A stretch of DNA of 64,000 nucleotides. Origin: Promethearchaeota archaeon. Lineage in GTDB: Archaea > Asgardarchaeota > Heimdallarchaeia > Hodarchaeales > Hodarchaeaceae. Location of the stretch: positions 1-64,000 of the forward strand of contig JBHLMN010000009.1 in assembly GCA_048938105.1 (NCBI GenBank). Reading direction: 5' to 3'. The position numbers and the translations under genes are program-made. Below are positions 21,905 through 44,114 of this stretch, piece after piece; the first letter of the stretch is position 1; each line of letters opens with the position of its first letter. The notes under the pieces were generated by a model. That model ran no database searches. It saw nothing but the letters and a program-made list of their open reading frames with translations, and was not told the origin of the DNA.

Positions 21905-24900
21905 AAAGCCTTGGGAGCCTGATGATATGAATTGGACTAGATTCAAAAAGTTTATTTTAAGGAATTATGTTATTATAAGTTTAGTTTTCTTATTTATTTT
22001 CTCTGGAATATCAAATACAACAACAAAGGTAATAAATTCAAGGATTGGTAATGATAATACTCAGATAAATAGTATAACAAATAATAGAGACAAGAGAAAT
22101 GTTTTGGAGAGCATCTCTGCAAATTCTATTGAGTTAATATCACCAGAAAATACGACATACACTTCCCCAATGAGTGGTTATTACCCTGCAACGTTTGGGT
22201 TTGAAAATGAACTCCATGGTACTTTGGGAACAAATCTTGAGTTCTTAGATGAATATGATATTGTAGGTAGTCCCCAGGATTATGTAGGTATAGGGATCAT
22301 TGATGGGCCTTATTATGGCCATAATAAAATGCTGTCCATTGGTGATGCACAGGGAGGGACTTATACTTATGGAGTCCATCATTTTGATAATCCTCCGATA
22401 GCAGGGACAATAGAATTTTATCTTCTCGTAGATAATATTCATTCGCCCTATACAGGTACCCATTATTTTCATTTGCGGGCGATGGATGATACAATTGCAA
22501 TTGAAATGCGAATTAATGTTATTGGACAATATTTGAGTAACATTGAGTATTTTGACGGTAGTTCTTGGCAACTCATCTCGGATCAAGTAAGTTATAACTG
22601 GTACCATCATTCAATAACATTTGATTGTGATGCAGGCACCCAAGGACTTTTTACTTGGATCACAAAATTTGAAAATGGAACTGAAACGGGACGAGTGGAA
22701 AATATTGACTTCTTAAATGATTTGAATACCCTTGATGAATTATATTTAGCAAGTGATGTTCCAACGTATTTTGGATCCACCTTATATGATGCCTTTGGAT
22801 TTAGCTGGGATCCTAATTATACTGTAGGAGATAACCTGAACGAAGGATTACTACTAAGTTATAATCCCCTTACTTCTTTAGATTGGACAGGTTACTCGCT
22901 AGATGGGGGAGCTAACGTCACAATTCCTGGAAATACCACCATTCCAATGCCATCAGAGGGAAGTCATACAATTCAAGTTTATGGGAATGATTCAGTAGGA
23001 ACCTATTATCAATCTGAATTAAGATCCTTCCAAGTTTGGCCTATTGAGATATTAACACCCGAAAATAGAATATACCATGCACCCATGAGTGGTTATTACC
23101 CTGCAACCTATGGATTTGAAAATGAGGATGGGACATTTGGTACGAGTATTGAATTTGTGGATGAGTATTACGCGGCAGGAGGATACACTGGAATTTCGGT
23201 TTGGGACGGACCAACAAATGGTCACATCAAGTATCTACATGTGGGCGATGCGCAGGATTCTACTACTACTTGGTGCGTGCATCATTTTGATAATTCACCA
23301 ACAACAGGAATAATAGAATTCTTCGTGGTTGCTCATGGAACTGTTGGGGAACATCACTTTGCATTGAGAGCTTCAGATGATACAATTGCGGTTGAAATGA
23401 GAGTCTACGTTGATGGAGGAAAATTTCAATATTTTGATGGCACTTCTTGGCAAAATATCGCAGATTTGGTTGTAGACACATGGTTCCATCACTCAATCGT
23501 ATTTGATTGTGAAGCAGGAGGTGGTCAAGGACAATTTGATTGGATTGTAAGCTATGAAAATGGCACTGAAGTTGGGAGTGTAAATAGTATCAGTTTTCAA
23601 AATGATTTGGATAAACTTGATGAATTATATATAGGAAGTACTATATTAACTTATTTAATCTCTACTCAATGGGATGCCTTTGGATTTAGCTGGGATCCTA
23701 ATTATAATGTAGGAGATAACCTGAACGAAGGATTACTACTGAGCTATTATACCCCTACTCCTCTAAATTGGACTGGTTACTCACTAGATGGCGGAGCCAA
23801 CATCACAATTCCTGGAAATACCACCATTCCAATACCATCAGATGGAGATCATATGATTCAGGTTTTCGCGAATGATTCAGAAGGAAACTATTATCAATCT
23901 GAATTAAGATCTTTTCAAGTTATCTCTATTGAAGTATTATCGCCCAAAGATAAAACGTACAATACACCAATGAACGGCTATTATCCTGCCTCCTGGGGCT
24001 TTGAAAATAATGTTCCTGGGAGGGAGCCTTCTGATTGGAATCTTGAGCCTTCAGGTGGTACTAGCTTCTATCGAGTTAATGCAGAATATGATGGCCATAA
24101 AAACGTTCTAGAAATGCGAAAAATCGGTGGTACAACGCAAGTTATGGTAACAAAGAACTTCTTATCAAGTGCTACTGTTGGAACCGTTGAATTCTGGCTC
24201 CAAAAGGATACGGAAGAACAATCAGATCCCACACGGTTTTTTTTGCTTAATTCTTCAGGTCATCCTCAGATAATATTTTATGTTGAAGAAAAAGATCTTT
24301 ATCACCGTAATTACGGGGAAGGGAGTTTACTTGCTTGGGATGTTATCGCTAAGGATACCTGGTATCATTTTCGGATAGATTTTGATGTCTCACAAAGTGG
24401 TTGGCATCTTCAGGTTAATGGTGTATGGTATGGCGGCACCATACCTTTTTATTATTCAGTGGCGAATCGTGTCTCAGGATTCCAAATGGCATCAATCGAC
24501 ACTGGAGATTATTCAGATTATGGTGCTTTTTTGGATGCTGTAGGCTATTCTTGGGATCCTGGCTATATTACTGGGGCTAATCTCAATGAAGGATTACTAC
24601 TGAGCTATAATACCTCTACCCCTCTGAATTGGACTGGTTACTCACTAGATGGCGGAGCTAACGTCACAATTCCTGGAAATACCACCATTCGAGTACCATC
24701 AGATGGAAGTCATACGATTCAAGTTTATGGGAATGATTCACTAGGTAATTGGTATTTCTCGAAACCAAGATCCTTCCAATGTTTTTTAAATCCCCCAAGT
24801 ATCACTAGTCCGCCTGATCAGCTCGATATTGAATTAGGTGATATAGGGAGAAATATTTTATGGTCTGTTTCTGATCCCAATCCTGCTAATTACACAGTAT

Positions 24901-27900
24901 ATCGAAATGGAACAGTATTCGAGGAAGGAAACTTGACTACAACTCCATCACCTGTTTTTATTTCATTGGATGGACTATCAGAAGGAAACCATAATTTTAC
25001 TTGTGTAGCAAGGAATATATTTGCAATGCCTGCCAGTGATGAGGTCTGGATTACTGTAGGTCCTGATGAGACCCCACCTGACATTTCTTCCCCTTCTGAT
25101 ATTAGTTTTGAAGATGGCTCTATTGGGTATACGATTCTTTGGACTGGTTCTGACATCTTTCCTTGGTGGGCATCCGTCCATAGAAACGATGACCTAATTT
25201 ATGATCAAGCGTGGGTTGGAAATGACATTAGAATCTCTCTTGATGGCCTCCCAATTGGATTATCCATCTTCAATTGTACTCTCTTTGATGAAGCTGGTAA
25301 CTCAGTTTATGATGTTGTAGAGGTTAATGTAACTGAAGCTGTTCTAGATACTATCGCACCAAAGGTAACTGCACCAGGTCCCCTAGAGTTTGAGGAAGGA
25401 ACTACAGGTCATATCCTCACCTGGATCTGTTCAGATGATCATCCATATGCCTATAAAATCCAGATAAATAATATTGATGAGCTTTTCAATCCTTGGCGTG
25501 GAGGAAATGTTGTTTATTCTGCGGATGATCTTCCTGTTGGCGTATGGGAAGTAAACCTCACTCTTTACGATCTCTCAGGTAACCTAGCTTCAAGCCCAGT
25601 AATCGTTACAGTTATTCCAGAAGCACCTGATACAACAGCTCCGACGGTTTCTCACCCTGAAGAGTTAATTGTTGCTGAGAATACTGCTAGTACAATTGTC
25701 TGGGAAGTAGATGATAAGCATCCAGACTGGTATACCATTTCTAGAAATGGATCAGTCATCTATGAACAACATTACTGGGTGCCAGGGATCATTCAATTTC
25801 ATTTTACCTCATTACCTCTTGGGACCTGGGAATTTAAGTTAACTGTATGGGATGAGGCAGGAAATAGTGCATCGGGTATTGCAATCGTTATAGCACTTCC
25901 TGGGGATGCATTCGATATTAATCCTCCAGACATTTCCCATGTAGCAGATATACAATATACCTATGGGACCACAAATCATTATCTTATCGTCTATCTATTT
26001 GATGAGCATCCTCAGGGTTATTCAATCTCTATAACTACAGATACTAATATTACTGAACAAATATGGACCTCACCTAATATTCGGGTTGATTTTTGTTTAG
26101 ATGATTTAGCAGTGGGTAGTTATACAGTTACGATAACTGCTTGGGACGCATTTGGCAATACTGAGACAAGTACCGTTAAAGTTACTGTTCAGGGAGATAT
26201 AACCCCACCCACTATTTCTTACCAACCTGATATCACTGCTTATGAAAATACCAATATTACGCTGACCTGGCAAATATCTGACGAGGCTCCCTCTCATTTC
26301 GAGCTAATCTTTTTGCCTGAGGGAAAAGTAAATCAATCAGGATCGTGGTCTGGTAATACAATCGAAATAATTATTAGAAATCTACCTACTGGTACATATC
26401 GATATAGACTTATTGTTTATGATGTTTCAGGTAACTATGCTGTAGATGATTTTACACTAACAGTGATTGAAAGTAGGGGAGCTCCTGGTTTTGAAATCCT
26501 CACTGCTGTACTATTTTTGCTGTTTTTCGCGAGATTTCGGGCTTATTTCAATTTAAAAAGGAGGAAAGGAAAATGAGTATTGTCCAGGAATTAAAATTTG
26601 GAGTTAAGAACCATTGGAAGCTGTTTTATGCTGTTATTGCACTTTTGATCCTTAGCTGTCCCGTAGCAGCTCAGTATTACACACCAGATATTAAATTCTC
26701 TAATTTTATGCCCACTAAAATCCCAAGACTAATGAAACAATCTTCTAATAATGATCAGGCTAAATCAAAAATACCTGATTACTTGTATAATTTCCTATCA
26801 GAAGAAGATCAAAAGAACCTGGAAACATACGGAGAATATTTGGAGTACCTTTCAGACGAAGACTTGGAAATGCTAGAAACATATGATGAATATTTACAGC
26901 AACTTGCGGATCCAAACCAACAATCTTCAAAAGCTTATGATTATTTTCAAAATTGTTGGCACCCTGTTGAAGAAACCATATCAGTCTCATCTGAGGAATT
27001 GCCAAACTTTGAAGAATCACTACAATCATTTTTCTTTAATGATTGGGTCAAAAAACCATCCTATTCTTTAGCAGTTGAATCAGATGAAGAAATTGAATCC
27101 ATAAACACCTGTGATGATCATAAAATTGAAACAACTACGATATTAAAAAAAGATAATTGTGAATTAGTTGATACAACAATTATTTCTGAAAATCAAGAAA
27201 TTTATCAAAGATCAGTGTTTACTGAAGACAGTGAGCTTACACAGATTACAGAAATTTCTGGGAAACCTCAAATTAAACTTATTGAACCAGATTTTTCTGG
27301 ATTCGATGATATTAAGATTCCGATCCGCTCTAAAGAAGAGGCTGGAAAGGGAGCTGGTCAAACTGAGTTAGAATGGGTCACTAAAACTATTGATGTTAAG
27401 ATGGGCTTTGAATTTGATCTTCCTAGTTTTAACTATAGGCTGTATGCATCTATTTATTTCACAAGATTCCGAGCTTGGGCTATATTTGAGGCAGGATTTC
27501 ATTTTATCTTTCCTGTGAGGCTGATTATTGAATATCCTGCAGAAGTAATAGAAGGTCTAACTTACGATTTTAAAGTAACTCTTATTCCTCTTGATCTTCC
27601 GGACTATCATGAGTTTGAAATTAAATTCTTGTTAGATGTTGGCGTTGCAATGGATGTATTGCATCTTTGGTGGGGAACAAAGCGAATATCAATTCCATAT
27701 TGGTGGTTCTGGAAATGGCGTAGTATAACAATAGTAATCCCTTGGCTATATGGGGATTGGAAAAATGTCTATTATTATCCGCTCATTTATTATAATTTCC
27801 ATAAATATGACGATTATCAAACACCTTTAGCGGGAGAAAAAGCCAAGATAGATTTTAATTTTGACGTAGATCTTCTTCCGATCATCGCAGATTTAAATAT

Positions 27901-30900
27901 TCCTTATTTATCTACGATTTGTGATGCATTATCATATTTCTTGGAAATTGGTGTCGGTCTTGGATTCCTCGATATATCTGGAAAAGCAGTTACAGGACAA
28001 CTAGCTGCTTCAGCTGGTGATTCACCTAAGACAAGGAATCCTGTGAGCTGGACTTATTCTGGGGAAGAAAATATCTTAGAATTTGGTATTCCGCATGAAG
28101 CAGGAGAATTACTTGGACTTTCTGTTGATGAAATGATATTCCATGCTAGCAAAGTAGTCTGGAGCCCAGAGTTTTTCCTTTACTTTAAAAATGTAAACTG
28201 GTGGATTTTTACAATTCCTCTTCGAAATTGGATCGGTGGATTTCGTGTCCCAATTCTGGGTATTAATTTCGGAGAAATGAACCTTCCGTCCTTATATTCA
28301 TATGATATTAGCGCATCTTCAATAATATCTGAAGACGTTTATGATTTCCTAATGGATGTTGAAGAAATAACTCCAGTTGGAGGCCAAGGGGCATTAGCGA
28401 CCATCAATACATATGACCAGATGTATGAAATAACATTGCAAAATATCGCAGGTAGATCTGATGTGATTGAACTAGAGGTTCAAGGATTACCAGAAGGTTA
28501 CACAGCTACTTTTGATAGAGCAGTACCCCAATATAGCATTGGTTCGATTCCTACAACTGTGAATTTAATTATTTCACCACCAGAATATATTAAAGCATCC
28601 CCAGGAGAGAAAACATTTAATATTGTAGCAACAAGTCAAGCGAAACGGAATCTGAATGTCCCAGACCCTACAACGACTAAATCTGCTACTTTAATTGTTC
28701 CCTCTACTTCAGATTTCAGTCTTAATGTTGATTTAGGAACTGATATCGATAAAGTTATCCAGGTTAATTACGGAGATTATATCCCAATAGGGTTCTTGGG
28801 GGAAAACTTAGGCAATCAAAATGACACAATAACTGTAAACGCAACGCTTTATTCACCAGATTCAACCCTAAGAAGTTGGGAAGAAAGTTACGCAGTTGAA
28901 CCATATGGTTCAGGATCAAATCAGTATTATTCAGGTGAGTATGGATTTACGTATAATCGAACTGATCTCTATCCCTCTCCGGGTGTTTATACGCTAGATA
29001 TTGAAGCAACAAGTCAAAGGTCACCCACTAATGTTAAGAAAGTTCGATTAGCTCTTAATTTCACCCCACATTACGACTTAGAAACTTCAATTAGTCCCAA
29101 TTCTACAACTATGTTCGCTAATTTCGCGTCTAATTTCACATTCACATTAACAAATATGGGAAATGCCATGGATAACTACACATTGACATCTAGTGGATGG
29201 GATGACTATATCACTTTTATAACTGGAAATAAAATCCTAAATCTCGCTCCTGATGATCATGAGGAAATAATAGTGGCGCTGAAAATACCAAAGTCAGAAA
29301 TAAATAACACAGATGCGGGAGTATATGATTTTCGAATTACCGCTACATCTGATAGTAGCGGAGGAGCGATATTCTCATCAACAGATGTCAGTGTGAATGT
29401 TCTCGAACCTGATTATGTCCCTCCAGCAATCATTTCTGTTGATACACCGTACGATTATGAAGCACTTGAGTTTAAAACTTCACCCTGGGGTTTAGAATAC
29501 CCATATTCAGAAGAATTTACATATGGGCCATCCTGGAAAGCGATCGATGATTATCCGAATAAATACTCAGTTTTTATTGATAATAATCCTTATACGGGTC
29601 CTCTTTACTTAGGATCATGGCAGAATGATACTCCTATATTTGTTCCTGTAACAGGAATAAATGCATTAGATGAAGGAATCCATAATATTACTGTAACATT
29701 CAATGATACCTCTGGAAATGTGGCTACTGAACAGATCTGGATCACAATCACGCCATCTGATACCACGATGCCAATTGTAACACCACTTTCAAGTGATTGC
29801 AGCGTACCAGAGAACTATGTGGAATATGATGTAATTCCTCTTGTCTGGAATTGTACTGAAGAATATCTTTTGGATATAAGTATATATAAGAATGGGACTA
29901 AGTTTCCAATCTATGAATATTTTAGAGAGAGTCTTAAAGTAGAACAAAATCCAGATATAAAACATAATTTTATTGTAACATGTTATATTCCTGAAACGTA
30001 TTTATTAGACGAAGCTGACCCTCCATATGTTTGGAATATTACACTCTCTATTCAGGATGGCGGAGGTAATTCTACCTCAGCAAGTATATTCATTATAGTG
30101 ACTGATCCCGACAATGATCCTCCCGAATTTACGATTTCACCTGAAATTTATTCTTCGGCTTATCTCAAACACGGTAAGACATTTAATTTCACAGCAACAG
30201 ACACTTATCCAGCCAAATATGAGCTTTGGATTAATTCAACTCTTTCACAAAATGGCACATGGAAATCTGGAATTCCTGTCGAATTTCAGGTAGACGAGTT
30301 AAATCTAAGTGTTGGAGCCAATGATTTAGAACTTTATGTATATGATCTCGTAGGCCAGTATGCTTATGCTCAATGGATCTTTACACTTCAAGATATTGAT
30401 CCACCAACGTTAGTGGTTGCACCAAATGATTTCATGGTCTATGAACATAATATAACGGAAGGGGAGCTTCCTTACTGGCAATTACACGATTTTGATCCCA
30501 ATCCTGGCATATACCGAATTTATCAAGATAGTGTTTTGGTCGAAGAGGGCAACTGGACTATTGGTAACCACTTTATCCCAGTCCCAATTGCGAACTTAAC
30601 ACCAGGGCTACATAATATTAGAGCTGAATTTCGAGATGCGACTGGCAATATGATTCCCTCTTCTTTTGATGTGACCGTTAAAGATGTCCTTGCACCATAT
30701 ATTTGGCCACACGATCCCATTCATTACGAACCACTCTATACAGCCTCATGGTTTGAATTTTTCATCTCAGAACCACACTTAGAGAGCTATCAATTGTTCA
30801 GAAATGGGACCTTAATCACTGAAGATTCTTTGTCAGAAGATTTTCCGTTTATATTCGTAAATATTGCGGATTTGTCTTCAGGCTATCATATCTATACAGT

Positions 30901-31620: not shown

Positions 31621-31621
31621 A
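26573..31621 (+). CDS. Giant surface protein B1: acidic N-terminal region, Trp-rich domain, Ig-like repeats, PGF-CTERM-like anchor
   Basis: Signal peptide (..PVAA/Q); 4-bp ATGA overlap with A1; many Ig repeats; TPGFIL-TM-KKRN. Confidence 0.85.
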   Translation: MSIVQELKFGVKNHWKLFYAVIALLILSCPVAAQYYTPDIKFSNFMPTKIPRLMKQSSNNDQAKSKIPDYLYNFLSEEDQKNLETYGEYLEYLSDEDLEMLETYDEYLQQLADPNQQSSKAYDYFQNCWHPVEETISVSSEELPNFEESLQSFFFNDWVKKPSYSLAVESDEEIESINTCDDHKIETTTILKKDNCELVDTTIISENQEIYQRSVFTEDSELTQITEISGKPQIKLIEPDFSGFDDIKIPIRSKEEAGKGAGQTELEWVTKTIDVKMGFEFDLPSFNYRLYASIYFTRFRAWAIFEAGFHFIFPVRLIIEYPAEVIEGLTYDFKVTLIPLDLPDYHEFEIKFLLDVGVAMDVLHLWWGTKRISIPYWWFWKWRSITIVIPWLYGDWKNVYYYPLIYYNFHKYDDYQTPLAGEKAKIDFNFDVDLLPIIADLNIPYLSTICDALSYFLEIGVGLGFLDISGKAVTGQLAASAGDSPKTRNPVSWTYSGEENILEFGIPHEAGELLGLSVDEMIFHASKVVWSPEFFLYFKNVNWWIFTIPLRNWIGGFRVPILGINFGEMNLPSLYSYDISASSIISEDVYDFLMDVEEITPVGGQGALATINTYDQMYEITLQNIAGRSDVIELEVQGLPEGYTATFDRAVPQYSIGSIPTTVNLIISPPEYIKASPGEKTFNIVATSQAKRNLNVPDPTTTKSATLIVPSTSDFSLNVDLGTDIDKVIQVNYGDYIPIGFLGENLGNQNDTITVNATLYSPDSTLRSWEESYAVEPYGSGSNQYYSGEYGFTYNRTDLYPSPGVYTLDIEATSQRSPTNVKKVRLALNFTPHYDLETSISPNSTTMFANFASNFTFTLTNMGNAMDNYTLTSSGWDDYITFITGNKILNLAPDDHEEIIVALKIPKSEINNTDAGVYDFRITATSDSSGGAIFSSTDVSVNVLEPDYVPPAIISVDTPYDYEALEFKTSPWGLEYPYSEEFTYGPSWKAIDDYPNKYSVFIDNNPYTGPLYLGSWQNDTPIFVPVTGINALDEGIHNITVTFNDTSGNVATEQIWITITPSDTTMPIVTPLSSDCSVPENYVEYDVIPLVWNCTEEYLLDISIYKNGTKFPIYEYFRESLKVEQNPDIKHNFIVTCYIPETYLLDEADPPYVWNITLSIQDGGGNSTSASIFIIVTDPDNDPPEFTISPEIYSSAYLKHGKTFNFTATDTYPAKYELWINSTLSQNGTWKSGIPVEFQVDELNLSVGANDLELYVYDLVGQYAYAQWIFTLQDIDPPTLVVAPNDFMVYEHNITEGELPYWQLHDFDPNPGIYRIYQDSVLVEEGNWTIGNHFIPVPIANLTPGLHNIRAEFRDATGNMIPSSFDVTVKDVLAPYIWPHDPIHYEPLYTASWFEFFISEPHLESYQLFRNGTLITEDSLSEDFPFIFVNIADLSSGYHIYTVEVTDESGNIGKELVEIYVTDYTPPFIIRPPDLIFSEGTIGHSILWEIIEANPHNYSLYLDDQLISSGTLTDMNMSISVDTLELGLHKYVLVVYCQFGFSHSASCYVVVVDTAAPTLSHVFDCRYTEGDPNAEIVWKAYDLHPSSYTIKHNGTTIITETWTGTDITLPLIGWFAGTHNIELIVSDTSGNTAMDEVKLKIIKEELYSTVKGPSSTPGFILIYVLVVFTILALVKYQVKKRN

Positions 31622-32586: not shown

Positions 32587-32623
32587 ATAAACAATGTGTC
32601 CTTTAATCCTATTTTTTTACTTT

Positions 32624-33382: not shown

Positions 33383-33407
33383 TCTAGTCCCCTTAATTCT
33401 CTGCTTC

Positions 33408-34079: not shown

Positions 34080-34245
34080 AAAATATCTTCATTTATAGAA
34101 TTCACCTGATATTTTTTTAAATATTATCATTCAATATATTCAAATATTTTTTGATTCAGTAATATTTTTAAATATATCGGTTAAGTTAAATATGTACTCG
34201 AAAAAATACTAGATTTCCAACAATTGACCTCCCTCTGAACAATAT

Positions 34246-37200
34246 AAGCCTTGATTGGGAGATGATACGTTGAAGAAGAGTCTAATAGGATTAATAATAA
34301 TTGTACCGTTAATCAATCGCTTTATTTATGAAAGAAAGGATAGAAGATTTATCTTCAGGAATTTTGTTGTTATTGGTTCAATATTCTTATTTATTTTCTC
34401 TGGGATATCAAATACTAATACAAGGGTATTGAATTCAAGGATTGGAATTGATACAACTCAGATAGGTAATATAGCACATGATACAAACAAGGGGAATGTT
34501 TTAGAGAGCATAGCTGCAAATTCAATTGAGTTATTAACACCTGAAAATAAAACATACCATGCACCTATGAGTGGCTATTATCCTGCCTCTTGGGGTTTTG
34601 AAAATAATGATCCTGGGATGGAGCCTTCTGATTGGTACCTTACACCTACAAATGGCAGTAGCTTCTATCGAGTTAATGCGGAATACGATGGCCATAAAAA
34701 CGTTCTAGAAATGCGAAAATATAATGGCACAACACAAGTTACGGTAATAAAGAACTTCTCATCAAGTGTTACTGCTGGAACCGTAGAATTCTGGCTCCAA
34801 AAAGATACGGGAGAGAGTGGAGTCCATCTTTCAGATCCTACACGATTTTTTTTGCTTAATTCTTCAGGTCATCCTCAGGTAGTATTTTTTGTTGAAAGAA
34901 TGGATCTTTATCCGTATAATTATATACCTACTTATGATGTTGTCCCAAAGGATACCTGGCATCATTTTCGAATAGATTTTGATGTTTCACAAGGTGGCTG
35001 GCAACTCCAGTTTAATAACTATCAGTTTGGCAGTGGGTATACCTTGCCCTTTTATTATCCAGTGGTGGATCATGTCTCAGGATTCCAAATGGCGTCGACC
35101 GACTTTGCAGATTTTTCGGATTATGGTGCCTATTTGGATGCTGTAGGCTATTCCTGGGATCCTGGCTATACTGTTGGGGATAATCTCAATGAAGGACTAC
35201 TACTGAGTTATTATACCCCTACCCCTCTAAATTGGACTGGCTACTCACTAGATGGGGGAACTAACGTCACAATTCTTGGAAATACAACCATTCCAATGCC
35301 ATCAGATGAAATTCATACTATTCAAGTTTTTGGCAATGATTCACTAGGTAATTGGTATTCCTCGGAGTTAAGACCCTTCCGATGCTCAGTATCCCTAAAT
35401 ATCTATACACCCGAAGAGAAAACATACCTTGCACCAATGAGCGGTTATTATCCTGCCACGTTTGGGTTCGAAAATGAAATCGATGGTACTGAAGGAACAA
35501 ATCTTGAGTTCATTGATGAATATTATCAACCAGGTGAGCAGAATGCATATATAATTGTCAATGATGGGCCATGGTATGACCATAACAACTTTTTGGTGGT
35601 TTATGATAGAGAAACTGCGTATAATACCTCTGGGGTTCATTATTTTGATAATCCTCCAACAACAGGGACAATAGAATTTTATAATTGTTATGCAGCAGAC
35701 TCAGATGGGTACCATTATTTCATTTTACGGGCTATGGATGATACTGCTGCAATTCAAATAAGAATTGATGTTGAAGGTATAGTTGAGTATTTTGACGGTA
35801 CTTCTTGGCATCTAATCTCGGATCAAGTGTATTATGAATGGTACCATCATTCAATCACATTTGATTGTAAAGCAGGCACAAAAGGACAATTTACTTGGAT
35901 CACAAGAGATACAGATGGAACTGAAGTGGGTCGAGTTGAAAATATTGACTTCTTAAATGATTTGAATACAATTGATGAATTGTATTTAGGAAGTGATGAT
36001 GCTGCAAATTTTGGAGTTACATATTGGGATGCTTTTGGGTTCAGCTGGGAACCTAATTATAATGTCGGAGATAATCTGGACGAAGGATTATTACTAAGTT
36101 ATTATACCCCAACACCCCTAGTTTGGACTGGTTATTCACTCAATGGAGGAACAAACATCACAATTCTTGGAAATACAACCATTCCAATGCCTTTCGATGG
36201 AACTCATACGATTCAAGTTTTTGGGAACGATTCAGCAGGTAATAGGTATTCCTCGGAGCTAAGATCTTTCCAAGTTGCGTCTATTGAGTTATTAACACCC
36301 GAAAATATAACCTACAATGCACCAATGGGCGGTTATTATCCTGCAACATTTGGGTTCGAAAATGAACTCCATAAAACTAGAGGAACAGATATTGAATTCA
36401 TTGATGAATGGTATGAAGCAGGTGAGGTAACAGAAATAGTGGTCTATGAAGGGCCATTGGACGGCCATTACAACTTTTTGGTCATAGCTGATGACATAGA
36501 TGCCTCTGGGGCAAATGCCTCTGGGGTCCATTATTTTGACAATCCTCCAACAACAGGGACAATAGAATTTTATAATTATTATTCAGTTCCTATGTCATTA
36601 GGATCCCATTATTTCATTTTACGGGATATAGATGATACTGTTGCAGTTCAAATAAGAATTAATACTGATGGAGGTAGAATTGAGTATTTTAACGGTACTT
36701 CTTGGCAAAATATCACGAATCAGGTTCCTATCACTTGGTACCATCATTCAATCACATTTGATTGTGAAGCAGGCTCAAATGGACGATTTACTTGGATCAC
36801 AAGAGATACAGATGGAACTGAAGTGGGCCGAGTGGAAAATATTGAATTCTTAAATGATTTAAATACAATTGATGAATTGTATTTAGGAAGTGATGATCCT
36901 GCAAATTTTGGAGACACACTATGGGATGCTTTTGGATTCAGTTGGGATCCTAATTATAATATCGGAGATAATCTGGACGAAGGATTGTTACTAAGTTATA
37001 ATACTCCCACACCCCTAGTTTGGACTGGTTATTCACTCAATGGAGGAACAAACATCACAATTCTTGGAAATACAACCATTCGAATGCCTTTAAGTGGAAC
37101 TCATACAATTCAAGTTTTTGGTAATGATTCGGCAGGTAATTGGTATTCCTCGGAACTGAGATCGTTCGAAACTATAACTCCCCCTAGTATCATTGGCCCA

Positions 37201-40200
37201 GCCGATTTTGCTATTGAGCTTGGTGACATAGGTAAAAACTTTTTATGGTCTCTTTCTGATCCTTATCCTGCTAATTATATAGTATATCGAAATGGGACAA
37301 TTTTCAAGGAAGAAAATTGGTCTGCAGTTGATCTTACTGTTTATATTTCGTTGGATAGACTATCAGAAGGAAACCATAATTTTACCTGTGTTGCAAGAAA
37401 TACATTTGACAGGATAGCCATTGATGAAGTCTGGATTACTGTTGGTCCTGATGAGACCCCACCCGACATTTCTTCTCCTTCTGATATTAGTTTTGAAGAA
37501 GGTTCTATTGGGTATTCAATTCTTTGGACTGGTTCTGACAACTTTCCCTGGTGGGCATCCGTCCATAGAAACGATTCCCTAATTTATGATCAAGCGTGGG
37601 TTGGAAATGACATCGAAATTTCTCTTGATAACCTCACAGCTGGATTATACATCTTCAATTGTACTCTCTTTGATGAACCAGGGAACTCGGCTTATGATAT
37701 TGTAGAGGTTAATGTAACTGAAGCTGTTCCAGATACTAGGCCACCAAAAGTAACAGCACCAGATCCCCTAGAGTTTGAGGAAGGAACTACAGGTCATATC
37801 CTCACCTGGATCTGTTCAGATGATCATCCATATGCCTATAAAATCCAGATAAACGATACTGATGAGCTTTTCAGCGCTTGGCGTGGAGGAAATGTTACTT
37901 TTACTGTAGATGATCTTCCTGTTGGTGTATGGGAAGTAAATCTCACTCTTTACGATCTCTCAGGTAACTTAGCTTCAAGTCCAGTAATCGTCACAGTCAA
38001 TCCAGAAGCCCCTGATACAACCGCTCCGACGGTTTCTCACCCTGCAGAGTTAATTATTGCTGAGAATACTGCTGGTACAATTGTCTGGGAAGTAAGCGAT
38101 AAACATCCAGACTGGTATACAATTTCTAGAAATGGAACAGTCATCTATGAACAACATTACTGGGTGTCAGGGATCATTCAATTTCATTTCACCTCATTAC
38201 CTCTTGGGACCTGGGAATTTAACTTAACTGTATGGGATGAGGCGGGAAATAGTGCATCGGGTATTGCAATCGTTAAAGTACTCCCTGGGAGTGCATTCGA
38301 TACTAATCCTCCAGAAATTTCCCAAGTAAAGGATATACAATATACCTATGGGACTACAAATAATTACCTCATTGTCTATCTATTTGACAAACATCCTCAG
38401 GGTTATTCAATCTCTATAACTACAGATACTAATATTACTGAACAAACATGGACCTCACCTAATATTCGGGTTGAAATTTGCTTAGATGGTTTAGCAGTGG
38501 GAAGTTATACAGTCACAATAACTGCTTGGGACACATTTGGTAATACGGAGGCAAGGACTGTTAAAGTAACTGTTCAGGGAGATGTCAACCCACCCACTAT
38601 TTCTTACCAACCTGATATTACCGCTTACGAAAATACTAATATCACGTTGACTTGGCAAGTATCTGACGAGTCTCCCTCTCATTTTGAGCTATTCATTTTG
38701 CCCGAGGGAAAAGTAAATCAATCAGGATCGTGGTCTGGTAATTCAATCAATATTACTCTGGGATATCTTCCTACTGGTACATATCAATATCAACTTATTG
38801 TTTATGATGCATCTGGTAACTATGCTGTGGATGATTTTACACTCACCGTGATTAAAAGTAGTAGGGTTCCAGGTTTTGAAATCCTCACTGCTGTGCTATT
38901 TTTACTATTTTTCACAAAATTTCGACTTTACTTCAATTTAAAAAGGAGGAAAGAAAAATGAGTTTTGTTCAGGAATTAAAATTTGGAGTTAAGAACCATA
39001 GGAACCTCATTTATGCGGTTTTTGCACTTTTGGTTCTTATTTCTCCAGTAGTAGCCCAGTTTTACACACCAGATATTGAACTCTCTGATTTTATACCCAT
39101 TCAAGTTCCAAGATTGATGAAACAAGATAATGGTCAGGCTAAATCGAAGGTACCTGATTATTTGTATAATTTCCTATCAGAAGAAGATCAAAAGAACCTG
39201 GAAACATATGGAGAATATTTGGAGTACCTTTCAGACGAAGACTTACAGATGCTAGAAACTTATAATGAATATTTACAACAACTTACAGATCCAAACCAAC
39301 AATCATCAAAAGCTTATGATTATTTTCTAAATTGTTGGAACCCTGTTGAAGAGACCATATCTGTCTCATCTGAAGAATTACCTAACTTTAGGGAATCACT
39401 TCAATCATTCTTCTTTAAAGACTGGGTCAAAAAACCATCCTATTCTTTAGAAGTCGAACCAGATGAAGAAGTTGAATCCATTAGCACTTCTGATGACCAT
39501 AAAATTGAAACTACTACCAGAGTAAGAAAAGATAACTGCGAATTAGTTGATACAACAATTATTTCTGAAAATAAAGAGATTCATCAAAGATCAGTGATTA
39601 CTGAAGATAGTGAGATTACTCAGATTTCAGAGATTTCTGGTAGACCCCGAATTCAGCTTATTGAACCTGATTTTTCAGGGTTTGATGATATTAGGATTCC
39701 AATCCACTCTAATGAAGAGGGTGGAAAGGGAGCTGGTCAAGCTGATTTAGAATGGGTCACTAAAACTATTGATGTAGAGATTGGTTATAAATTGTCTCTT
39801 TCTAATATCAAGGAAGACCTGAACTTTACTATAAAAAATTTTGTAAAATTCCAAGCATGGGCTATGTTTATAGTAACATTTCGTTTTGTTTTCCCTGTGA
39901 GGCTGATTATTGAATATCCTGCAGAAGTATTTGAAGGTCAAACTTACGATTTTAAAGTAACTCTTATTCCTCTTGATCTTCCTGACTATCCTGAGTTCAA
40001 GATTAAAGTCTTGTTATGGGCTGGCGTAAGACTGGATATAAAGTTACTGAAGCTTCAAGTGGTATGTAAACCACGATGGTATTGGGATATCTTCAAATGG
40101 AAATGGCGTAAAACAAAAAAGAAATTTTGTGGTCTTTCATTAAGCCCAGTGTGGAAGAATGTCTTTTATTTACCACTTGTACCAATGCATTCTTTCGAGA

Positions 40201-43200
40201 TTAATGATACTTTTCAAACACCTTTAGCGGGCGAATCAGCCACAATTGATCTTCATAGGGGTATGTGTAAGGTGGAAGATATAGGTGTAATAGAAGGGGG
40301 TGATATAGATCTTCTTCCCATCATTGCAGAAAAAGCACCGCATCCCGTGATCAAAATAGTTGCTGAAGTTTTATCTATTCTCATGAAACTGGGTCTCAGC
40401 CTTGGGTGGCTCGACGTATTTGGAAATGCAGTTACAGGAGAACTAGCTGTCTCAGCAGGTGATTCACCTAAATCCAAGAATACCGCGAGCTGGAATCATT
40501 CTGGCGAAGTAAATACCTTAGAATTTGGTATTCCTCATGAAGCAGGAGAATATCTTGGACTTTCCTTTGATAAAATGATATTCCATGCAAGAAAAATAAC
40601 CTGGATGCCAGAGTTTTTTATTTCCTTTAAAGATATCGATTTAAAATCAGTACTTGACTTTTTTTTGTCTAAATGGAAAAAAAATTTCAAATGGCCTGAA
40701 TGGCTCCCCAATCCCAAACTACTACGACTTAATGAATGGTTCGGTACATTTCGTACCCCAATCTCGAAAATTGACCTCGGAAAAAACATTCCTTCTAGAC
40801 ATTCATATGAGATATATAAACTTGCATCCAAAATAGTATCGGCAGATGTTTATGATTTCTTGATGGATGTTGAAGAAATCACTCCAGTTGGAGGACAAGG
40901 GGCATTAGCGACCGTTAATACATATGACCAGATGTATGAAATAACATTACAAAATCCAGCGGGTAGATACGATGTGATTGAACTAGAGGTTCAGGGATTA
41001 CCAGAAGGGTACACAGCTACTTTTGATAGAGCCAAACCCGTCTATAGTATTGATTCGTTTCCTACAACTGTGGATTTAATTGTTTCCCCCCCAGAATATA
41101 TCAAAGCGTCTCCAGGAGTGAAAACATTCAATGTTGTGGCAACAAGTCAAGCAAAACGGAGTCTAAATGTCCCAGATCCTACAATGACCAAATCTGCTAC
41201 TTTAACTGTTCCCTCTACTTCAGATTTCAGTCTTAATGTTGATTTAGGAACCGAAACAGCTAAAACCATCCAAATTAACTATGGAGATTATATCCCAATA
41301 AGGTTCTTAGGTGAAAACTTAGGTAATCAAAATGACACAATAACTGTAAACGCAACGCTTTATTCGCTAGATTCAACCCTAAGAAGTTGGGAAAACAGCT
41401 ACGCTGTTGATCCATATGGTTCAGGATCAAGTCAGTATTATTCAGGTGGGTATGGATTTACATATGATCGAGCTGATCTCTATCCCTCTCCAGGCGTTTA
41501 TGCGCTAGACATTGAAGCAACAAGTCAAAGGTCACCTACCAACATTAAGAAAGAACGATTGGCTCTTAATTTCACCACACATTATGATTTAGAAACTTCC
41601 ATTACTCCCGAGTCTACAACTATGTTTGCTAATTTTGGAACTAATTTCACATTCACATTAAAAAACATGGGACATACCGTGGACAACTATACACTGACAT
41701 CTAGCGGGTGGGATGATTATATTACTTTCCTCACAGGAAATAAAATCCTCGATCTCGCTCCTAATGATACTGAGGAAATAATAGTGGCGCTGAAAATACC
41801 AAAGTCAGAAGTTAATGATACAGATGCGGGAGTATATGATTTTCGAATTGCTGCATTATCTGATGGTAGCGGAGGAGCGATATTCTCATCAACAGATGTC
41901 AGTGTGAATATTCTTGAACCTGACTATGTTCCCCCAGGAATCATCTATGTTGATACTGATAAGTCTGCTTGGGGCTTTGAATATCCATATTCAACAGAAT
42001 TTACATATGGTCCATCATGGAAAGCAATCGACAACTGGCCAGATACATACTCAATCTATATCAACAGTACTACACCTTATGATACTGGTACTTGGATTAA
42101 TGATTCTCCAATTTTTGTTCCTGTAACTGGACCTACTAATGCGTTAGATGAGGGAATCTATAATATTACAGTAACATATAATGATACCTCTGGAAATGAG
42201 GCTACTGAGCAAATCTGGATCACTATCAACCCACCTGACGCAACGATACCGATTGTAACACCACTTTCAGATAATGATAGCGTACCATGGAATTATGCAG
42301 ATGAGAATGTAATTCCTCTTGTCTGGAATTGTACTGAAGAATATCTATTAAATATAAGTATCTATAAGTATTGTATCTATGCCGGTGGTGACATGGGGGA
42401 ATTTTCTCTTACTCAAGATAACCTTGAAGTACTCCTAGATCCAGATATAGAACACAATTTCATTGTAACATTCTATGTTCCTGAATCAGAGTTGGCACTT
42501 CCAGAAGCACCGTTCCCATATGATATGAATATTACACTCTTAGTTCAGGATGGCGGAGGTAATTCTGCCTCAGCAAGCATATTTATCACTGTGGCTGCCC
42601 CCGACATTGTTCCTCCTGAACTTACAATTTCACCTGATGATTATATTATTGCGTATCTCAATTACGGTGGATCATTTAATTTCACAGCAACAGACACTTA
42701 TCCAGCCAAATATGAGCTATGGATTAATTCGACTTTGGGTCAAAATGGTACTTGGAAATCTGGAGTTCCTGTAATATTTCAAGTAGAAGAGTTAAATCTA
42801 CCTGTTGGAGCCAATGATTTAGAACTATATGTATACGACCTAGTAGGTAATGATATTTCTACTAAATGTATCCTTACACTCCATGATATTGATCCCCCGA
42901 CTTTGATGGCAGATCCAGGCGATTTGATAGTTAATGAACATACTCTAATGGAAATAGAGATACCTTATTGGCAATTACACGATTTTGATCCCAGGCCTGG
43001 CACTTATCGAATTTATCAAGACAGTGTATTGGTCAAAAAAGGTACCTGGACCATTGGAAATTGTAGTATCCCAGTCCCTATTAGGAATTTAACCGCAGGA
43101 TCGTATAACATTAAGGCTGAATTTCGAGATGCGACTGGCAATATGATTCCCTCATCTTTTGATGTGACCATTAAAGATGTCCTTGCACCTTATATTTGGC

Positions 43201-44112
43201 CACACGACCCTATTTATTATGAACCACTCTATACCGCCTCGTGGTTTGAGTTTTTCATCTCAGAGCCACACTTAGAGAGCTATCGCCTCTTCAGAAATGG
43301 AACATCAATCGCTGAAGGGACTTTGTCAGAGGATTTTCCGTTTATATTCGTGAGTCTTGCGGATTTGTCTACAGGCTATTATACTTATACAGTGGAAGTC
43401 ACTGACGAGTCAGGAAATATAGGTACAGAATTAGTTGAGGTTCATGTTACTGATTACACTCCCCCGTTCATAATAAGACCACCAGACCTTGTTTTCTCCG
43501 AAGGGACCACAGGCCATTCAATACTTTGGGAAATCATAGAAGCAAACCCTCACAACTATTCTCTCTATCTCAATGATCAGCTAATTTCTTCGGGAACGCT
43601 TACAAACATGAACATGTCAATTTCTGTGGATACCCTTGAATTGGGATTACACAAGTATATCCTCGTCGTTTATTGTCAATTTGGATTTTCACATGCTGCA
43701 TCCTGTTACGTTGTTGTTGTGGATATTACTACACCGACATTGTCTCAAGTTTTCGATTGTAGATTCGTTGAAGGGGATCCCAATGCAAAAGTTGTTTGGA
43801 AAGCATACGATCTACATCCATCCTCATACACAATAAAACATAATGGAACCACTATTATAACAGAAACTTGGACAGGAACCGACATCACATTACCATTAAT
43901 TGGATGGTTTGCTGGAACTCATAATGTTGAGCTGATTGTAAGTGATACCTCAGGAAACACAGCCACAGATGAAGTCAAACTTAAAATAATTAAAAAAGAA
44001 TCATATACTACTTTGAAAGGACCGAGTAGCGCTCCAGGGTTCATTTTAATGTATACTATAATGGTTTTTATAATCTTAACACCAATTAAATTTCGTTTGA
44101 AAAAGCGAAAAT
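34246..44112 (+). repeat. Copy 2 of the A+B cassette duplication
   Basis: Similarity begins at aagccttg...gatgata and ends at tgaaaaagcgaaa, matching the ends of copy 1. Confidence 0.9.
34255..38961 (+). CDS. Giant surface protein A2 (paralog of A1, modules in different order); probable TTG start 34270
   Basis: Same repeats and stalk as A1; VPGFEIL-TM-KRRKEK. Confidence 0.85.
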   Translation: MGDDTLKKSLIGLIIIVPLINRFIYERKDRRFIFRNFVVIGSIFLFIFSGISNTNTRVLNSRIGIDTTQIGNIAHDTNKGNVLESIAANSIELLTPENKTYHAPMSGYYPASWGFENNDPGMEPSDWYLTPTNGSSFYRVNAEYDGHKNVLEMRKYNGTTQVTVIKNFSSSVTAGTVEFWLQKDTGESGVHLSDPTRFFLLNSSGHPQVVFFVERMDLYPYNYIPTYDVVPKDTWHHFRIDFDVSQGGWQLQFNNYQFGSGYTLPFYYPVVDHVSGFQMASTDFADFSDYGAYLDAVGYSWDPGYTVGDNLNEGLLLSYYTPTPLNWTGYSLDGGTNVTILGNTTIPMPSDEIHTIQVFGNDSLGNWYSSELRPFRCSVSLNIYTPEEKTYLAPMSGYYPATFGFENEIDGTEGTNLEFIDEYYQPGEQNAYIIVNDGPWYDHNNFLVVYDRETAYNTSGVHYFDNPPTTGTIEFYNCYAADSDGYHYFILRAMDDTAAIQIRIDVEGIVEYFDGTSWHLISDQVYYEWYHHSITFDCKAGTKGQFTWITRDTDGTEVGRVENIDFLNDLNTIDELYLGSDDAANFGVTYWDAFGFSWEPNYNVGDNLDEGLLLSYYTPTPLVWTGYSLNGGTNITILGNTTIPMPFDGTHTIQVFGNDSAGNRYSSELRSFQVASIELLTPENITYNAPMGGYYPATFGFENELHKTRGTDIEFIDEWYEAGEVTEIVVYEGPLDGHYNFLVIADDIDASGANASGVHYFDNPPTTGTIEFYNYYSVPMSLGSHYFILRDIDDTVAVQIRINTDGGRIEYFNGTSWQNITNQVPITWYHHSITFDCEAGSNGRFTWITRDTDGTEVGRVENIEFLNDLNTIDELYLGSDDPANFGDTLWDAFGFSWDPNYNIGDNLDEGLLLSYNTPTPLVWTGYSLNGGTNITILGNTTIRMPLSGTHTIQVFGNDSAGNWYSSELRSFETITPPSIIGPADFAIELGDIGKNFLWSLSDPYPANYIVYRNGTIFKEENWSAVDLTVYISLDRLSEGNHNFTCVARNTFDRIAIDEVWITVGPDETPPDISSPSDISFEEGSIGYSILWTGSDNFPWWASVHRNDSLIYDQAWVGNDIEISLDNLTAGLYIFNCTLFDEPGNSAYDIVEVNVTEAVPDTRPPKVTAPDPLEFEEGTTGHILTWICSDDHPYAYKIQINDTDELFSAWRGGNVTFTVDDLPVGVWEVNLTLYDLSGNLASSPVIVTVNPEAPDTTAPTVSHPAELIIAENTAGTIVWEVSDKHPDWYTISRNGTVIYEQHYWVSGIIQFHFTSLPLGTWEFNLTVWDEAGNSASGIAIVKVLPGSAFDTNPPEISQVKDIQYTYGTTNNYLIVYLFDKHPQGYSISITTDTNITEQTWTSPNIRVEICLDGLAVGSYTVTITAWDTFGNTEARTVKVTVQGDVNPPTISYQPDITAYENTNITLTWQVSDESPSHFELFILPEGKVNQSGSWSGNSINITLGYLPTGTYQYQLIVYDASGNYAVDDFTLTVIKSSRVPGFEILTAVLFLLFFTKFRLYFNLKRRKEK

Positions 44113-44114
44113 GA
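38958..44114 (+). CDS. Giant surface protein B2 (paralog of B1)
   Basis: Collinear with B1; ATGA overlap with A2; APGFIL-TM-KKRK. Confidence 0.85.
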   Translation: MSFVQELKFGVKNHRNLIYAVFALLVLISPVVAQFYTPDIELSDFIPIQVPRLMKQDNGQAKSKVPDYLYNFLSEEDQKNLETYGEYLEYLSDEDLQMLETYNEYLQQLTDPNQQSSKAYDYFLNCWNPVEETISVSSEELPNFRESLQSFFFKDWVKKPSYSLEVEPDEEVESISTSDDHKIETTTRVRKDNCELVDTTIISENKEIHQRSVITEDSEITQISEISGRPRIQLIEPDFSGFDDIRIPIHSNEEGGKGAGQADLEWVTKTIDVEIGYKLSLSNIKEDLNFTIKNFVKFQAWAMFIVTFRFVFPVRLIIEYPAEVFEGQTYDFKVTLIPLDLPDYPEFKIKVLLWAGVRLDIKLLKLQVVCKPRWYWDIFKWKWRKTKKKFCGLSLSPVWKNVFYLPLVPMHSFEINDTFQTPLAGESATIDLHRGMCKVEDIGVIEGGDIDLLPIIAEKAPHPVIKIVAEVLSILMKLGLSLGWLDVFGNAVTGELAVSAGDSPKSKNTASWNHSGEVNTLEFGIPHEAGEYLGLSFDKMIFHARKITWMPEFFISFKDIDLKSVLDFFLSKWKKNFKWPEWLPNPKLLRLNEWFGTFRTPISKIDLGKNIPSRHSYEIYKLASKIVSADVYDFLMDVEEITPVGGQGALATVNTYDQMYEITLQNPAGRYDVIELEVQGLPEGYTATFDRAKPVYSIDSFPTTVDLIVSPPEYIKASPGVKTFNVVATSQAKRSLNVPDPTMTKSATLTVPSTSDFSLNVDLGTETAKTIQINYGDYIPIRFLGENLGNQNDTITVNATLYSLDSTLRSWENSYAVDPYGSGSSQYYSGGYGFTYDRADLYPSPGVYALDIEATSQRSPTNIKKERLALNFTTHYDLETSITPESTTMFANFGTNFTFTLKNMGHTVDNYTLTSSGWDDYITFLTGNKILDLAPNDTEEIIVALKIPKSEVNDTDAGVYDFRIAALSDGSGGAIFSSTDVSVNILEPDYVPPGIIYVDTDKSAWGFEYPYSTEFTYGPSWKAIDNWPDTYSIYINSTTPYDTGTWINDSPIFVPVTGPTNALDEGIYNITVTYNDTSGNEATEQIWITINPPDATIPIVTPLSDNDSVPWNYADENVIPLVWNCTEEYLLNISIYKYCIYAGGDMGEFSLTQDNLEVLLDPDIEHNFIVTFYVPESELALPEAPFPYDMNITLLVQDGGGNSASASIFITVAAPDIVPPELTISPDDYIIAYLNYGGSFNFTATDTYPAKYELWINSTLGQNGTWKSGVPVIFQVEELNLPVGANDLELYVYDLVGNDISTKCILTLHDIDPPTLMADPGDLIVNEHTLMEIEIPYWQLHDFDPRPGTYRIYQDSVLVKKGTWTIGNCSIPVPIRNLTAGSYNIKAEFRDATGNMIPSSFDVTIKDVLAPYIWPHDPIYYEPLYTASWFEFFISEPHLESYRLFRNGTSIAEGTLSEDFPFIFVSLADLSTGYYTYTVEVTDESGNIGTELVEVHVTDYTPPFIIRPPDLVFSEGTTGHSILWEIIEANPHNYSLYLNDQLISSGTLTNMNMSISVDTLELGLHKYILVVYCQFGFSHAASCYVVVVDITTPTLSQVFDCRFVEGDPNAKVVWKAYDLHPSSYTIKHNGTTIITETWTGTDITLPLIGWFAGTHNVELIVSDTSGNTATDEVKLKIIKKESYTTLKGPSSAPGFILMYTIMVFIILTPIKFRLKKRK

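Follow-up and report, generated by a model that had tools for sequence, protein, structure and literature searches.

Described systems related to the locus

ATPases of the ParA/MinD (A/D) type usually have their genes next to that of a partner protein and close to those of the cargo; flagella, chemoreceptor arrays, Tad pili and the BcsQ/cellulose apparatus are among the membrane machines that they position (PMC11407121, PMC10241942). Here we describe a five-gene locus in a 64,000-nt stretch of Promethearchaeota archaeon contig JBHLMN010000009.1 (positions 1 to 64,000, hereafter "the window"), which is part of a 5.85-Mb Hodarchaeota metagenome-assembled genome (G000). The five genes encode a ParA-class ATPase, a winged helix-turn-helix (wHTH) protein, a protein with seven transmembrane helices (7TM) and two giant surface proteins, A and B; a second A-B pair lies upstream. 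Gene order is conserved in all informative Hodarchaeales lineages. The module is restricted to Hodarchaeales, LC_3 included, and probably controls or positions its giant surface proteins. Its parts and its logic are of the known ParA/MinD-plus-partner kind, while the dedicated 7TM partner and the coupling to giant surface pairs with swappable heads are new. A previous model-made reading of this DNA (the original prediction) did not recognize the module as a described system, and in the literature on heimdallarchaeosortases, Heimdall-CTERM and Asgard 7TM proteins, ParA ATPases and adhesins we found no paper describing it.

Among the closest described systems are the A/D ATPase systems ParA-ParB, McdA-McdB, ParC-ParP/PpfA, FlhG, TadZ and BcsQ. 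Like the locus in the window, they have an ATPase of about 250 aa with a deviant Walker A motif, whose gene shares an operon with that of a small partner with a basic N-terminus, and several paralogous cassettes per genome that lie beside membrane or envelope genes (PMC11407121). N-terminal regions are what A/D ATPases and their partner proteins work through (PMC11407121). In the locus described here, in contrast, the gene upstream of the ATPase encodes the partner, a predicted tandem winged-helix protein, the ATPase always comes with a dedicated 7TM protein, the signature Lys is Arg in most orthologs, and the candidate cargo (giant surface proteins that are putative sortase substrates) is new. 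A further likeness is found in FleN, a MinD/ParA-family antiactivator that modulates the transcription factor FleQ (PMC8528422): both cases combine an A/D-family ATPase with a DNA-binding regulator of a cell-surface structure, the role proposed here for the wHTH protein. However, FleQ is a sigma54 AAA+ activator unrelated to wHTH, and the FleN-FleQ pair is bacterial and has no 7TM partner.

Three other comparisons can be made. CapA-CapB is a split bacterial tyrosine kinase (BY-kinase) of Firmicutes in which the P-loop kinase CapB is switched on by the cytoplasmic end (the last 29 residues) of the membrane protein CapA, and BY-kinases carry a C-terminal tyrosine cluster for autophosphorylation (PMC2422856). 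The likeness lies in a membrane protein with a short cytoplasmic C-terminal tail encoded beside a MinD-like P-loop gene in an envelope locus. The ATPase of the window, however, has a ParA-type Walker A motif and no Tyr cluster, its membrane protein is a 7TM bundle instead of a two-helix Wzz-like protein, and the genes are convergent instead of tandem. G-protein-coupled receptors (GPCRs; adhesion type and classes A to D) share with the 7TM model a seven-helix bundle with the N-terminus outside and the C-terminus inside, and large adhesive ectodomains are encoded near the 7TM gene. However, the 7TM protein has no sequence similarity to GPCRs (3-12% identity), lacks a GAIN/GPS domain and is not joined to an ectodomain either covalently or in its coding sequence; the neighboring NTPase is of the SIMIBI class and not a G protein, and the ectodomains are separate genes with their own sortase-type tails. 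In type Ib partition loci, too, ParA forms an operon with a small DNA-binding partner (the gap is 25 nt here), but the window locus has chromosomal flanks without integrase or tRNA genes, and a single 17-19-bp element instead of an iterated centromere array.

As regards the surface proteins, heimdallarchaeosortases belong to the exosortase/archaeosortase family. Together with the Heimdall-CTERM signal (models NF045528 and NF045529, respectively), they are the Asgard counterpart of ArtA and PGF-CTERM. Proteins A and B share the tail made of PGF, a transmembrane (TM) segment and basic residues. They differ from described Heimdall-CTERM sorting in that their tails score below the model cut-off, and neither a paired A-B design with swappable heads nor a link to a ParA cassette is part of that system.

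Gene order and conserved synteny

The open reading frame (ORF) listing gave the order A1-B1-7TM on the + strand, ParA-wHTH on the − strand and A2-B2 on the + strand, in full agreement with the original prediction. The gene for the ParA/MinD-class P-loop ATPase (32624-33382, −, 252 aa) is convergent with 7TM (31648-32586, +, 312 aa from the conserved start). The wHTH gene, which encodes a 223-aa adaptor or regulator (33408-34079, −), lies 25 nt upstream of ParA on the same strand, and is divergent from A2 (34255-38961, +), which encodes a giant surface protein of up to 1568 aa whose start is uncertain (TTG at 34255 or at 34270). A2 is followed by B2 (38958-44114, +, 1718 aa), a giant surface protein 72% identical to B1. 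The upstream pair is made of A1 (21927-26576, +, 1549 aa) and B1 (26573-31621, +, 1682 aa), both also giant surface proteins.

Both A/B junctions, read directly, are ATGA overlaps with AGGAGG 7 nt 5' of each ATG, and we take A and B to be translated together. Translational coupling by overlaps had also been proposed for the B1/7TM junction. The TAATG motif does exist there (31619-31623), and the 7TM reading frame is open from 31621. However, all 7TM homologs, like the database gene call, start at the equivalent of M10, whose codon is ATG 31648 with AGGA 8 nt upstream. Because of this agreement among homologs, the 7TM start more likely lies 26 nt past the B1 stop codon, in close linkage but probably without overlap.

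When related genomes were examined, the wHTH-ParA operon was found to be divergent from a giant A-B pair and convergent with 7TM in 8 of 8 informative Hodarchaeales lineages. Lineages were considered informative if they had wHTH and enough contig; they were the window, G004 (C152), L045, L056-58, Heimdallarchaeota LC_3 (L062), L063, L064 and L066. The five-gene order is kept down to about 50% identity for wHTH, 59% for ParA and 32% for 7TM. Furthermore, wHTH and ParA are co-oriented in all orthologous loci, and 7TM and ParA are adjacent in every lineage. A point set beforehand, against the original prediction, was that the core genes would usually be unlinked to A/B homologs in related genomes; the linkage was seen.

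The heads of the A proteins differ by lineage: they are lectin-like in the window, NosD beta-helices in L056 and LC_3, and DUF2341 domains in L063 and L064. The A stalk (about 50% identity) and B (44-48%) are conserved across lineages. Hence, the synteny survives swaps of the A head.

The wHTH protein and the divergent promoter

No Pfam or NCBIfam family matched the wHTH protein at cut-off. Its N-terminus is basic. In an AlphaFold2 model (predicted local distance difference test, pLDDT, 73), residues 10-53 form a long helix, which is followed by two winged-helix units of the helix-helix-helix-hairpin type. Foldseek returned weak matches to tandem winged-helix proteins (ScpB, ESCRT-II Vps25/22, RPC62 and TFIIIC; E 2e-3 to 3e-2). 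The family comprises 28 clusters, all of them from Hodarchaeales or LC_3 with the exception of one Odinarchaeota match; the Odinarchaeota wHTH-ParA pair stands without 7TM or A-B. Both wHTH and 7TM are single-copy in the window genome.

The intergenic region between wHTH and A2 contains a conserved element, GTAATATTTTTAAATATAT (34159-34177), with the core AATATwT-n3-AATATwT. The core aligns in the wHTH/A intergenic region of five lineages and is present also in L063 and L066, and may be considered a candidate operator or a bidirectional TATA element. The exact element occurs once in the 5.85-Mb genome, and neither A1 nor the four remaining A-B pairs of the genome have it upstream. This distribution led us to reject the idea of a regulon-wide operator; being unique in the genome and absent from other A-B promoters, the element points to local control.

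The ParA-class ATPase and its paralogs

The ATPase identity held: three Pfam families match above cut-off (AAA_31, 55.6 bits; CbiA, 46.6 bits; ParA, 33.5 bits), and sequence matches in the PDB include Soj, ParA, MinD and FleN (E 5e-4 for the latter). The Walker A motif, HSFRGGSGKS, has Arg at the position of the signature Lys, as do most Hodarchaeales orthologs (FRGGSGK[ST]). The signature Lys is present in L064, in L065 (the Odinarchaeota homolog) and in three of the four distant homologs aligned (two of family f4 and one of f2). It is also present in three of the four own-genome paralogs that follow an adaptor gene, the exception being C41b, with Arg.

A MinD-type C-terminal amphipathic helix was sought in ParA and not found: the C-terminus, ...EDSELFEKIRNMVEKLS, is acidic and hydrophilic. 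Because this helix is lacking, the protein would be ParA-like rather than MinD-like, or would depend on a protein tether.

The arrangement of wHTH and ParA is not unique in the genome. Four of the five ParA paralogs (about 29% identity) are preceded by a small gene with a gap of 0-21 nt. These cassettes are found at C56:169480-170787, C41:13804-15111, C41:86189-87427 and C61:1510-2978, and inspection indicated that their small genes encode either an N-terminus like that of ribbon-helix-helix proteins followed by a wHTH, or a coiled coil followed by a wHTH. Counting the wHTH-ParA operon, the genome therefore has five adaptor-ParA cassettes. Three of them (C53, C56 and C41b) diverge from an operon whose products carry a signal peptide and, at the C-terminus, an anchor made of a TM segment and basic residues, and the same three have a membrane-protein gene either directly after ParA or convergent with it. 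A design in which an adaptor, a ParA and a membrane protein are linked to the envelope may thus be general in this genome or lineage.

Pairing of 7TM with ParA was also considered for distant ParA relatives and discarded, as the f4 homologs (33-38% identity) sit in another operon without 7TM. That operon (L030-L041; for instance L030:1294-5163) has three genes: one for an unknown protein (about 252 aa), one for the ParA-like ATPase and one for a DUF460 protein (about 720 aa). Of 12 f4 genomes searched, 10 have the ParA-DUF460 operon.

The 7TM protein

Like wHTH, the 7TM protein matched no Pfam or NCBIfam family, Pfam 7tm included, and the sub-threshold QcrA_N and HTH_9 matches obtained in the 7TM and wHTH scans were treated as noise. 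The nature of both proteins, as originally predicted, is thus supported by AlphaFold models though not by a family match. The 7TM model, built from a seven-sequence alignment (pLDDT 76), has seven TM helices, a beta-hairpin in the second extracellular loop (ECL2), a long, helical and basic third intracellular loop (ICL3) and a helical cytoplasmic tail, with a predicted N-out, C-in topology. The extracellular loops are short in the model (9, 18 and 8 residues).

In an alignment of 13 sequences, conservation clusters on the outward-facing side: TPF in ECL1, LAE at the top of TM3, PW..G..Q..S in ECL2 and D..G...PQAY in TM7. The cytoplasmic tail, with the near-invariant FIEKxD..[LFY][YF] at its end, is a second site of conservation. 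Conservation is lowest in ICL3. The protein diverges faster in near relatives (78% identity) than ParA (95%) or wHTH (91%).

Structural comparisons gave weak results. Foldseek matches to GPCRs and rhodopsins had E ≥ 0.018 and TM-scores of 0.2-0.48. VIA-align gave Z 15.9 for Ste2, 15.2 for designed GPCR-like folds and about 12-13 for many GPCRs and rhodopsins, with 3-12% identity, where the stated noise level for helical bundles is Z about 13. The model may therefore be read as a GPCR/rhodopsin-type bundle, a match at best just above noise. A retinal-binding Lys was sought in TM7 (LDVIGSLIIIIPQAYILI) and none was found within the membrane span, which rules out a microbial rhodopsin. A sortase-like role was also considered and discarded; on inspection, the invariant residues (G, W, Q, P, Y, E, D and S) include no Cys/Arg/His set.

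A word-indexed search retrieved 4 clusters of the 7TM family, and a profile search among 1.84 billion representatives retrieved 29. Several lineages have two 7TM paralogs: they are 56% identical in LC_3 (L062:11456-14641), and tandem in G004 (L012:16722-18826) and L059. A predicted complex of full-length 7TM with ParA scored 0.13 against a mark of 0.32, a value that counts neither for nor against contact.

Other genes were seen next to 7TM in individual lineages. In G004 (L012:19156-19836) and G017 (L015:515-1195), a gene for a 226-aa TrmB-like wHTH protein, unrelated to the wHTH of the module, is divergent from 7TM; paralogs about 52-54% identical exist on C42, C39 and C49 of the window genome. 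One Hodarchaeales lineage has a gene of the actin family (484 aa, PF00022; L056:2175-3629, L057:1-1200) immediately upstream of 7TM and in the same orientation.

The giant surface proteins and the variable slot

A1, B1, A2 and B2 all have an N-terminal hydrophobic segment and a C-terminal tail of PGF, hydrophobic and basic residues, and their C-terminal halves match Ig-like Pfam families (Big_13, HYR, K319L-like PKD and Big_3_3). Hence, the architecture originally proposed for the four giants (N-terminal hydrophobic segment, Ig stalk and PGF-TM-basic C-terminus) was corroborated by the sequence and by Pfam matches. In A1, the N-terminal hydrophobic segment is followed by three head modules of about 290 aa that belong to no known family, and by an Ig-like stalk. 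In B1, a signal peptide is followed by an acidic helical region, a variable Trp-rich region (about residues 360-555), FixG_C/CARDB-like and Ig-like domains, and the tail.

A1-B1 and A2-B2 are paralogous two-gene operons. The duplicated DNA (21951-31626 versus 34348-44119) has 72-86% nucleotide identity and ends at the B stop codon; 7TM is therefore outside it. The original prediction that stalks are conserved between copies and distal domains differ also proved right: stalks have 80-93% protein identity in A1/A2 and B1/B2 (80-92% for A1 versus A2), while identity between copies drops to 17-37% in the A heads and in region 360-555 of B. In the A heads the modules are permuted, A2 having the same modules as A1 in another order. 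The divergent region of B (27650-28230 and 40040-40740 in the window) is rich in Trp and Lys and is the most divergent part of the protein, with 28-37% identity and indels between flanks that are 68-92% identical. No known family matched it. Pfam searches at E ≤ 1 with the A head modules and with residues 30-640 of B gave only sub-threshold noise, and residues 230-640 of B had no match in a protein atlas.

The premise that the tails are PGF-CTERM signals for an archaeosortase has to be corrected. The PGF, TM and basic pattern is clear by eye. However, the tails fit Heimdall-CTERM better: they score 14.6 bits (A1) and 18.7 bits (B1) against NF045529, below its cut-off of 24, and no PGF-CTERM model was reported for the A and B tails. 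Some 53 ORFs of the genome have tails of the Heimdall-CTERM type. Nor are the sortases ArtA: two ORFs match the heimdallarchaeosortase model NF045528 with 251.8 and 261.4 bits (cut-off 130), and these same ORFs are the best genome matches to ArtA (TIGR04125), with 31 and 21.9 bits against a cut-off of 75. By analogy with the exosortase/archaeosortase family, we infer that the A and B tails would be cut, and the proteins anchored, by one of the two heimdallarchaeosortases.

Comparison with near relatives revealed that the two pairs are not equivalent. The near relative L042, whose ParA is 95% identical, is devoid of A1-B1 and has about 93 nt in place of window positions 21878-31642: L042 positions 1-703 and 769-909 match window 20880-21582 and 21735-21877, and L042 positions 1003-3366 match window 31643-34006. 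The 9.76-kb A1-B1 segment (21878-31642) is thus a strain-specific cassette that sits 5 nt before the 7TM start codon, and the former upstream region of 7TM is now upstream of A1. In L066 another A-B pair occupies this slot, with a B protein 37% identical to B1 and an A protein of the beta-helix type; the gene divergent from wHTH is an ortholog of A2 (93% identical). Because L042 is without A1-B1 and L066 keeps the A2 ortholog with another pair upstream, A2-B2 is the resident partner of 7TM, ParA and wHTH (the trio), and the upstream slot is variable. A1-B1 is best explained as a recent paralogous cassette inserted into that slot, and not as a designed second input.

A candidate regulatory cassette

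Altogether, the reading that we favor, to which we give a probability of roughly two in five, is that the trio is a locus-specific regulatory cassette in which wHTH acts on the shared promoter, ParA is its partner, and 7TM provides a tether or an input. The wHTH protein would bind AATATwT-n3-AATATwT in the promoter region that it has in common with A2-B2, and would control that operon and its own. ParA would serve as a nucleotide-dependent partner or switch of wHTH, as in pairs of ParA with a DNA-binding partner and in FleN-FleQ. The 7TM protein would tether ParA to the membrane, or would feed it an input through the near-invariant cytoplasmic tail.

Support for a regulatory cassette comes from the synteny in all eight lineages and its survival of head swaps, from the local DNA element, from the recurrence of the adaptor-ParA design, from the lack of a membrane helix in ParA together with the conserved outward-facing residues and near-invariant tail motif of 7TM, and from the chromosomal setting (the flanks of the cluster are ordinary housekeeping genes, with no integrase, transposase or tRNA among them). 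We also count in its favor that wHTH and all A-B genes are absent together from G017. Precedents are FleN-FleQ (PMC8528422), A/D ATPases stimulated by partners (PMC11407121) and the activation of CapB by the CapA tail (PMC2422856).

Several observations weigh against it. To begin with, the eight lineages display inherited synteny at orthologous loci, not eight independent events. Most A-B pairs, moreover, do without the cassette. The window genome has six A-B pairs, all with 4-nt overlaps, and no homolog of 7TM, ParA or wHTH was found near the four that lie outside the window. Among 20 other genomes of the same genus, B-type proteins are found in G003, G004, G009, G011 and G012, and the trio in G004 only; in G003, G009, G011 and G012 the A-B pairs stand without it. 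Conversely, G017 (an assembly 86% complete) keeps 7TM and ParA and has no wHTH, and no A or B anywhere. Since 7TM and ParA persist there without wHTH and A-B, their role cannot be only the regulation of A-B. As for wHTH, its fold matches include tandem winged-helix proteins that do not bind DNA, such as ScpB and ESCRT-II, and the AT-rich element could be just a bidirectional promoter with TATA and transcription factor B recognition (BRE) sequences. Last, Arg at the position of the signature Lys in most orthologs may make the ATPase cycle atypical.

If the link is functional, it offers a testable handle on the control of surface-adhesin expression or placement in Asgard archaea, and adds a 7TM partner to the ParA/MinD repertoire. 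The module joins the largest and most variable surface proteins to a dedicated ParA ATPase, a putative DNA-binding adaptor and a family-restricted 7TM protein, and the recurrence of adaptor-ParA-membrane-protein cassettes beside envelope operons suggests that the principle may be general in the lineage. Of the known archaea, Hodarchaeales belong to those most closely related to eukaryotes, and partner sensing and attachment are central to models of eukaryogenesis.

Alternative explanations

One alternative, somewhat unlikely in our opinion, is that the trio is a positioning or assembly device and not a transcription switch. ParA would then form patterns on the nucleoid or at the membrane and place the A-B complex, or the A-B locus, at defined membrane sites by way of the wHTH adaptor and 7TM, and might, for example, link both transcription and translation of the giant proteins to their export. 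This is what A/D ATPases usually do: they lie beside partner and cargo, and position membrane machines (PMC11407121, PMC10241942). The five adaptor-ParA cassettes of the genome, three of them next to envelope operons and with an adjoining membrane protein, would fit such a device, as would the basic N-terminus of wHTH, a trait of other ATPase-stimulating partners, and the persistence of 7TM and ParA together without wHTH in G017. However, a winged-helix adaptor with a conserved DNA element nearby fits regulation, or a DNA cargo, better than a protein cargo. Moreover, the predicted processing would turn A and B into extracellular proteins with a lipid anchor, and positioning would find little cytoplasmic handle.

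In a more novel reading, which we consider distinctly unlikely, a 7TM protein with a GPCR fold would act directly through its tail on a ParA-class NTPase, and the latter on a DNA-bound wHTH adaptor at an adhesin promoter. The outcome would be either signaling from a receptor to DNA, or tethering of the adhesin locus at the membrane, where export would accompany transcription.

The original prediction proposed a split receptor akin to an adhesion GPCR, in which the A and B ectodomains would sense a partner or prey and signal through 7TM and ParA to wHTH, with two alternative ectodomain pairs as inputs to one transducer. We regard this as very unlikely. Certain traits do agree with it: the five-gene synteny is conserved, an A-B pair runs directly into the 7TM gene in two strains, the 7TM model packs its helices in the GPCR/rhodopsin manner (Z 15.9 with Ste2), and conservation in 7TM is concentrated at the outer face and the cytoplasmic tail, which a transducer would be expected to show. 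Nevertheless, the notion of two pairs sharing one transducer is undermined by the strain-specific nature of the A1-B1 insertion, which is absent in L042 and has another pair in its place in L066, and it is further weakened by A-B pairs that mostly lack the trio and by the 7TM and ParA of G017, which have no A-B to serve. No GAIN/GPS domain was found in A1, B1, A2, B2 or 7TM (Pfam, E ≤ 0.01), nor a tethered-agonist feature in A or B, nor a link to a G protein. In addition, the extracellular loops of 7TM are short (9, 18 and 8 residues), the C-terminal helices of A and B are putative sortase signals expected to be removed, and the fold match lies near the noise level of helical bundles with 3-12% identity.

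Even more doubtful is the possibility that wHTH and ParA are the remnant of a partition cassette (ParA plus a centromere-binding protein) from a former mobile element in a recombination-prone island, with 7TM as an unrelated neighbor. The combination of ParA, a small DNA-binding partner and an upstream repeat does resemble type Ib loci, and ParA and Soj are among the PDB matches. The distribution is patchy (3 of 21 same-genus genomes, G000 included), and the Odinarchaeota wHTH-ParA pair lacks 7TM and A-B. A remnant, however, would hardly agree with a five-gene order kept down to about 50-59% identity, LC_3 included, with housekeeping flanks devoid of integrase, transposase and tRNA genes, with the adjacency of 7TM and ParA in every lineage and the near-invariant 7TM tail, or with a single element in place of an iterated centromere array.

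A split BY-kinase-like pair, in which the 7TM tail would activate the P-loop protein as a kinase of envelope-biogenesis targets in the way that the last 29 residues of CapA activate CapB (PMC2422856), is highly improbable: CapA/CapB chimeras are the best PDB match of ParA (E 8e-8) and the eps tyrosine autokinase domain is its best NCBIfam match (5e-11, below its cut-off), but the CapA/CapB matches are confined to the Walker A region (residues 8-92) and hardly exceed those to Soj or MinD, the Walker A motif is of the KGG-type deviant ParA/MinD form and not of the BY-kinase form, and the last 30 residues of the window ParA and of its orthologs contain no Tyr.

Other features of the window

A third adhesin was suspected at 45283-50184 (−) and rejected, as this single ORF of 1633 aa has two UvrA-like ABC ATPase units (with UvrA_inter and UvrA_DNA-bind matches). 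It has a 4-nt overlap with a gene at 44255-45286 (−) that encodes a 343-aa protein with squalene-hopene-cyclase-like repeats. Further downstream, 50801-53251 (+) encodes an 816-aa surface protein of the NosD/beta-helix type, with a C-terminal tail made of FPGE, a TM segment and basic residues and a weak PEP-CTERM match; its beta-helix is about 30% identical to the A heads of L056 and LC_3. On the other side of the cluster, 14799-15821 (−) encodes a CheR-type methyltransferase with a C-terminal match to a C2H2 zinc finger, an unusual fusion.

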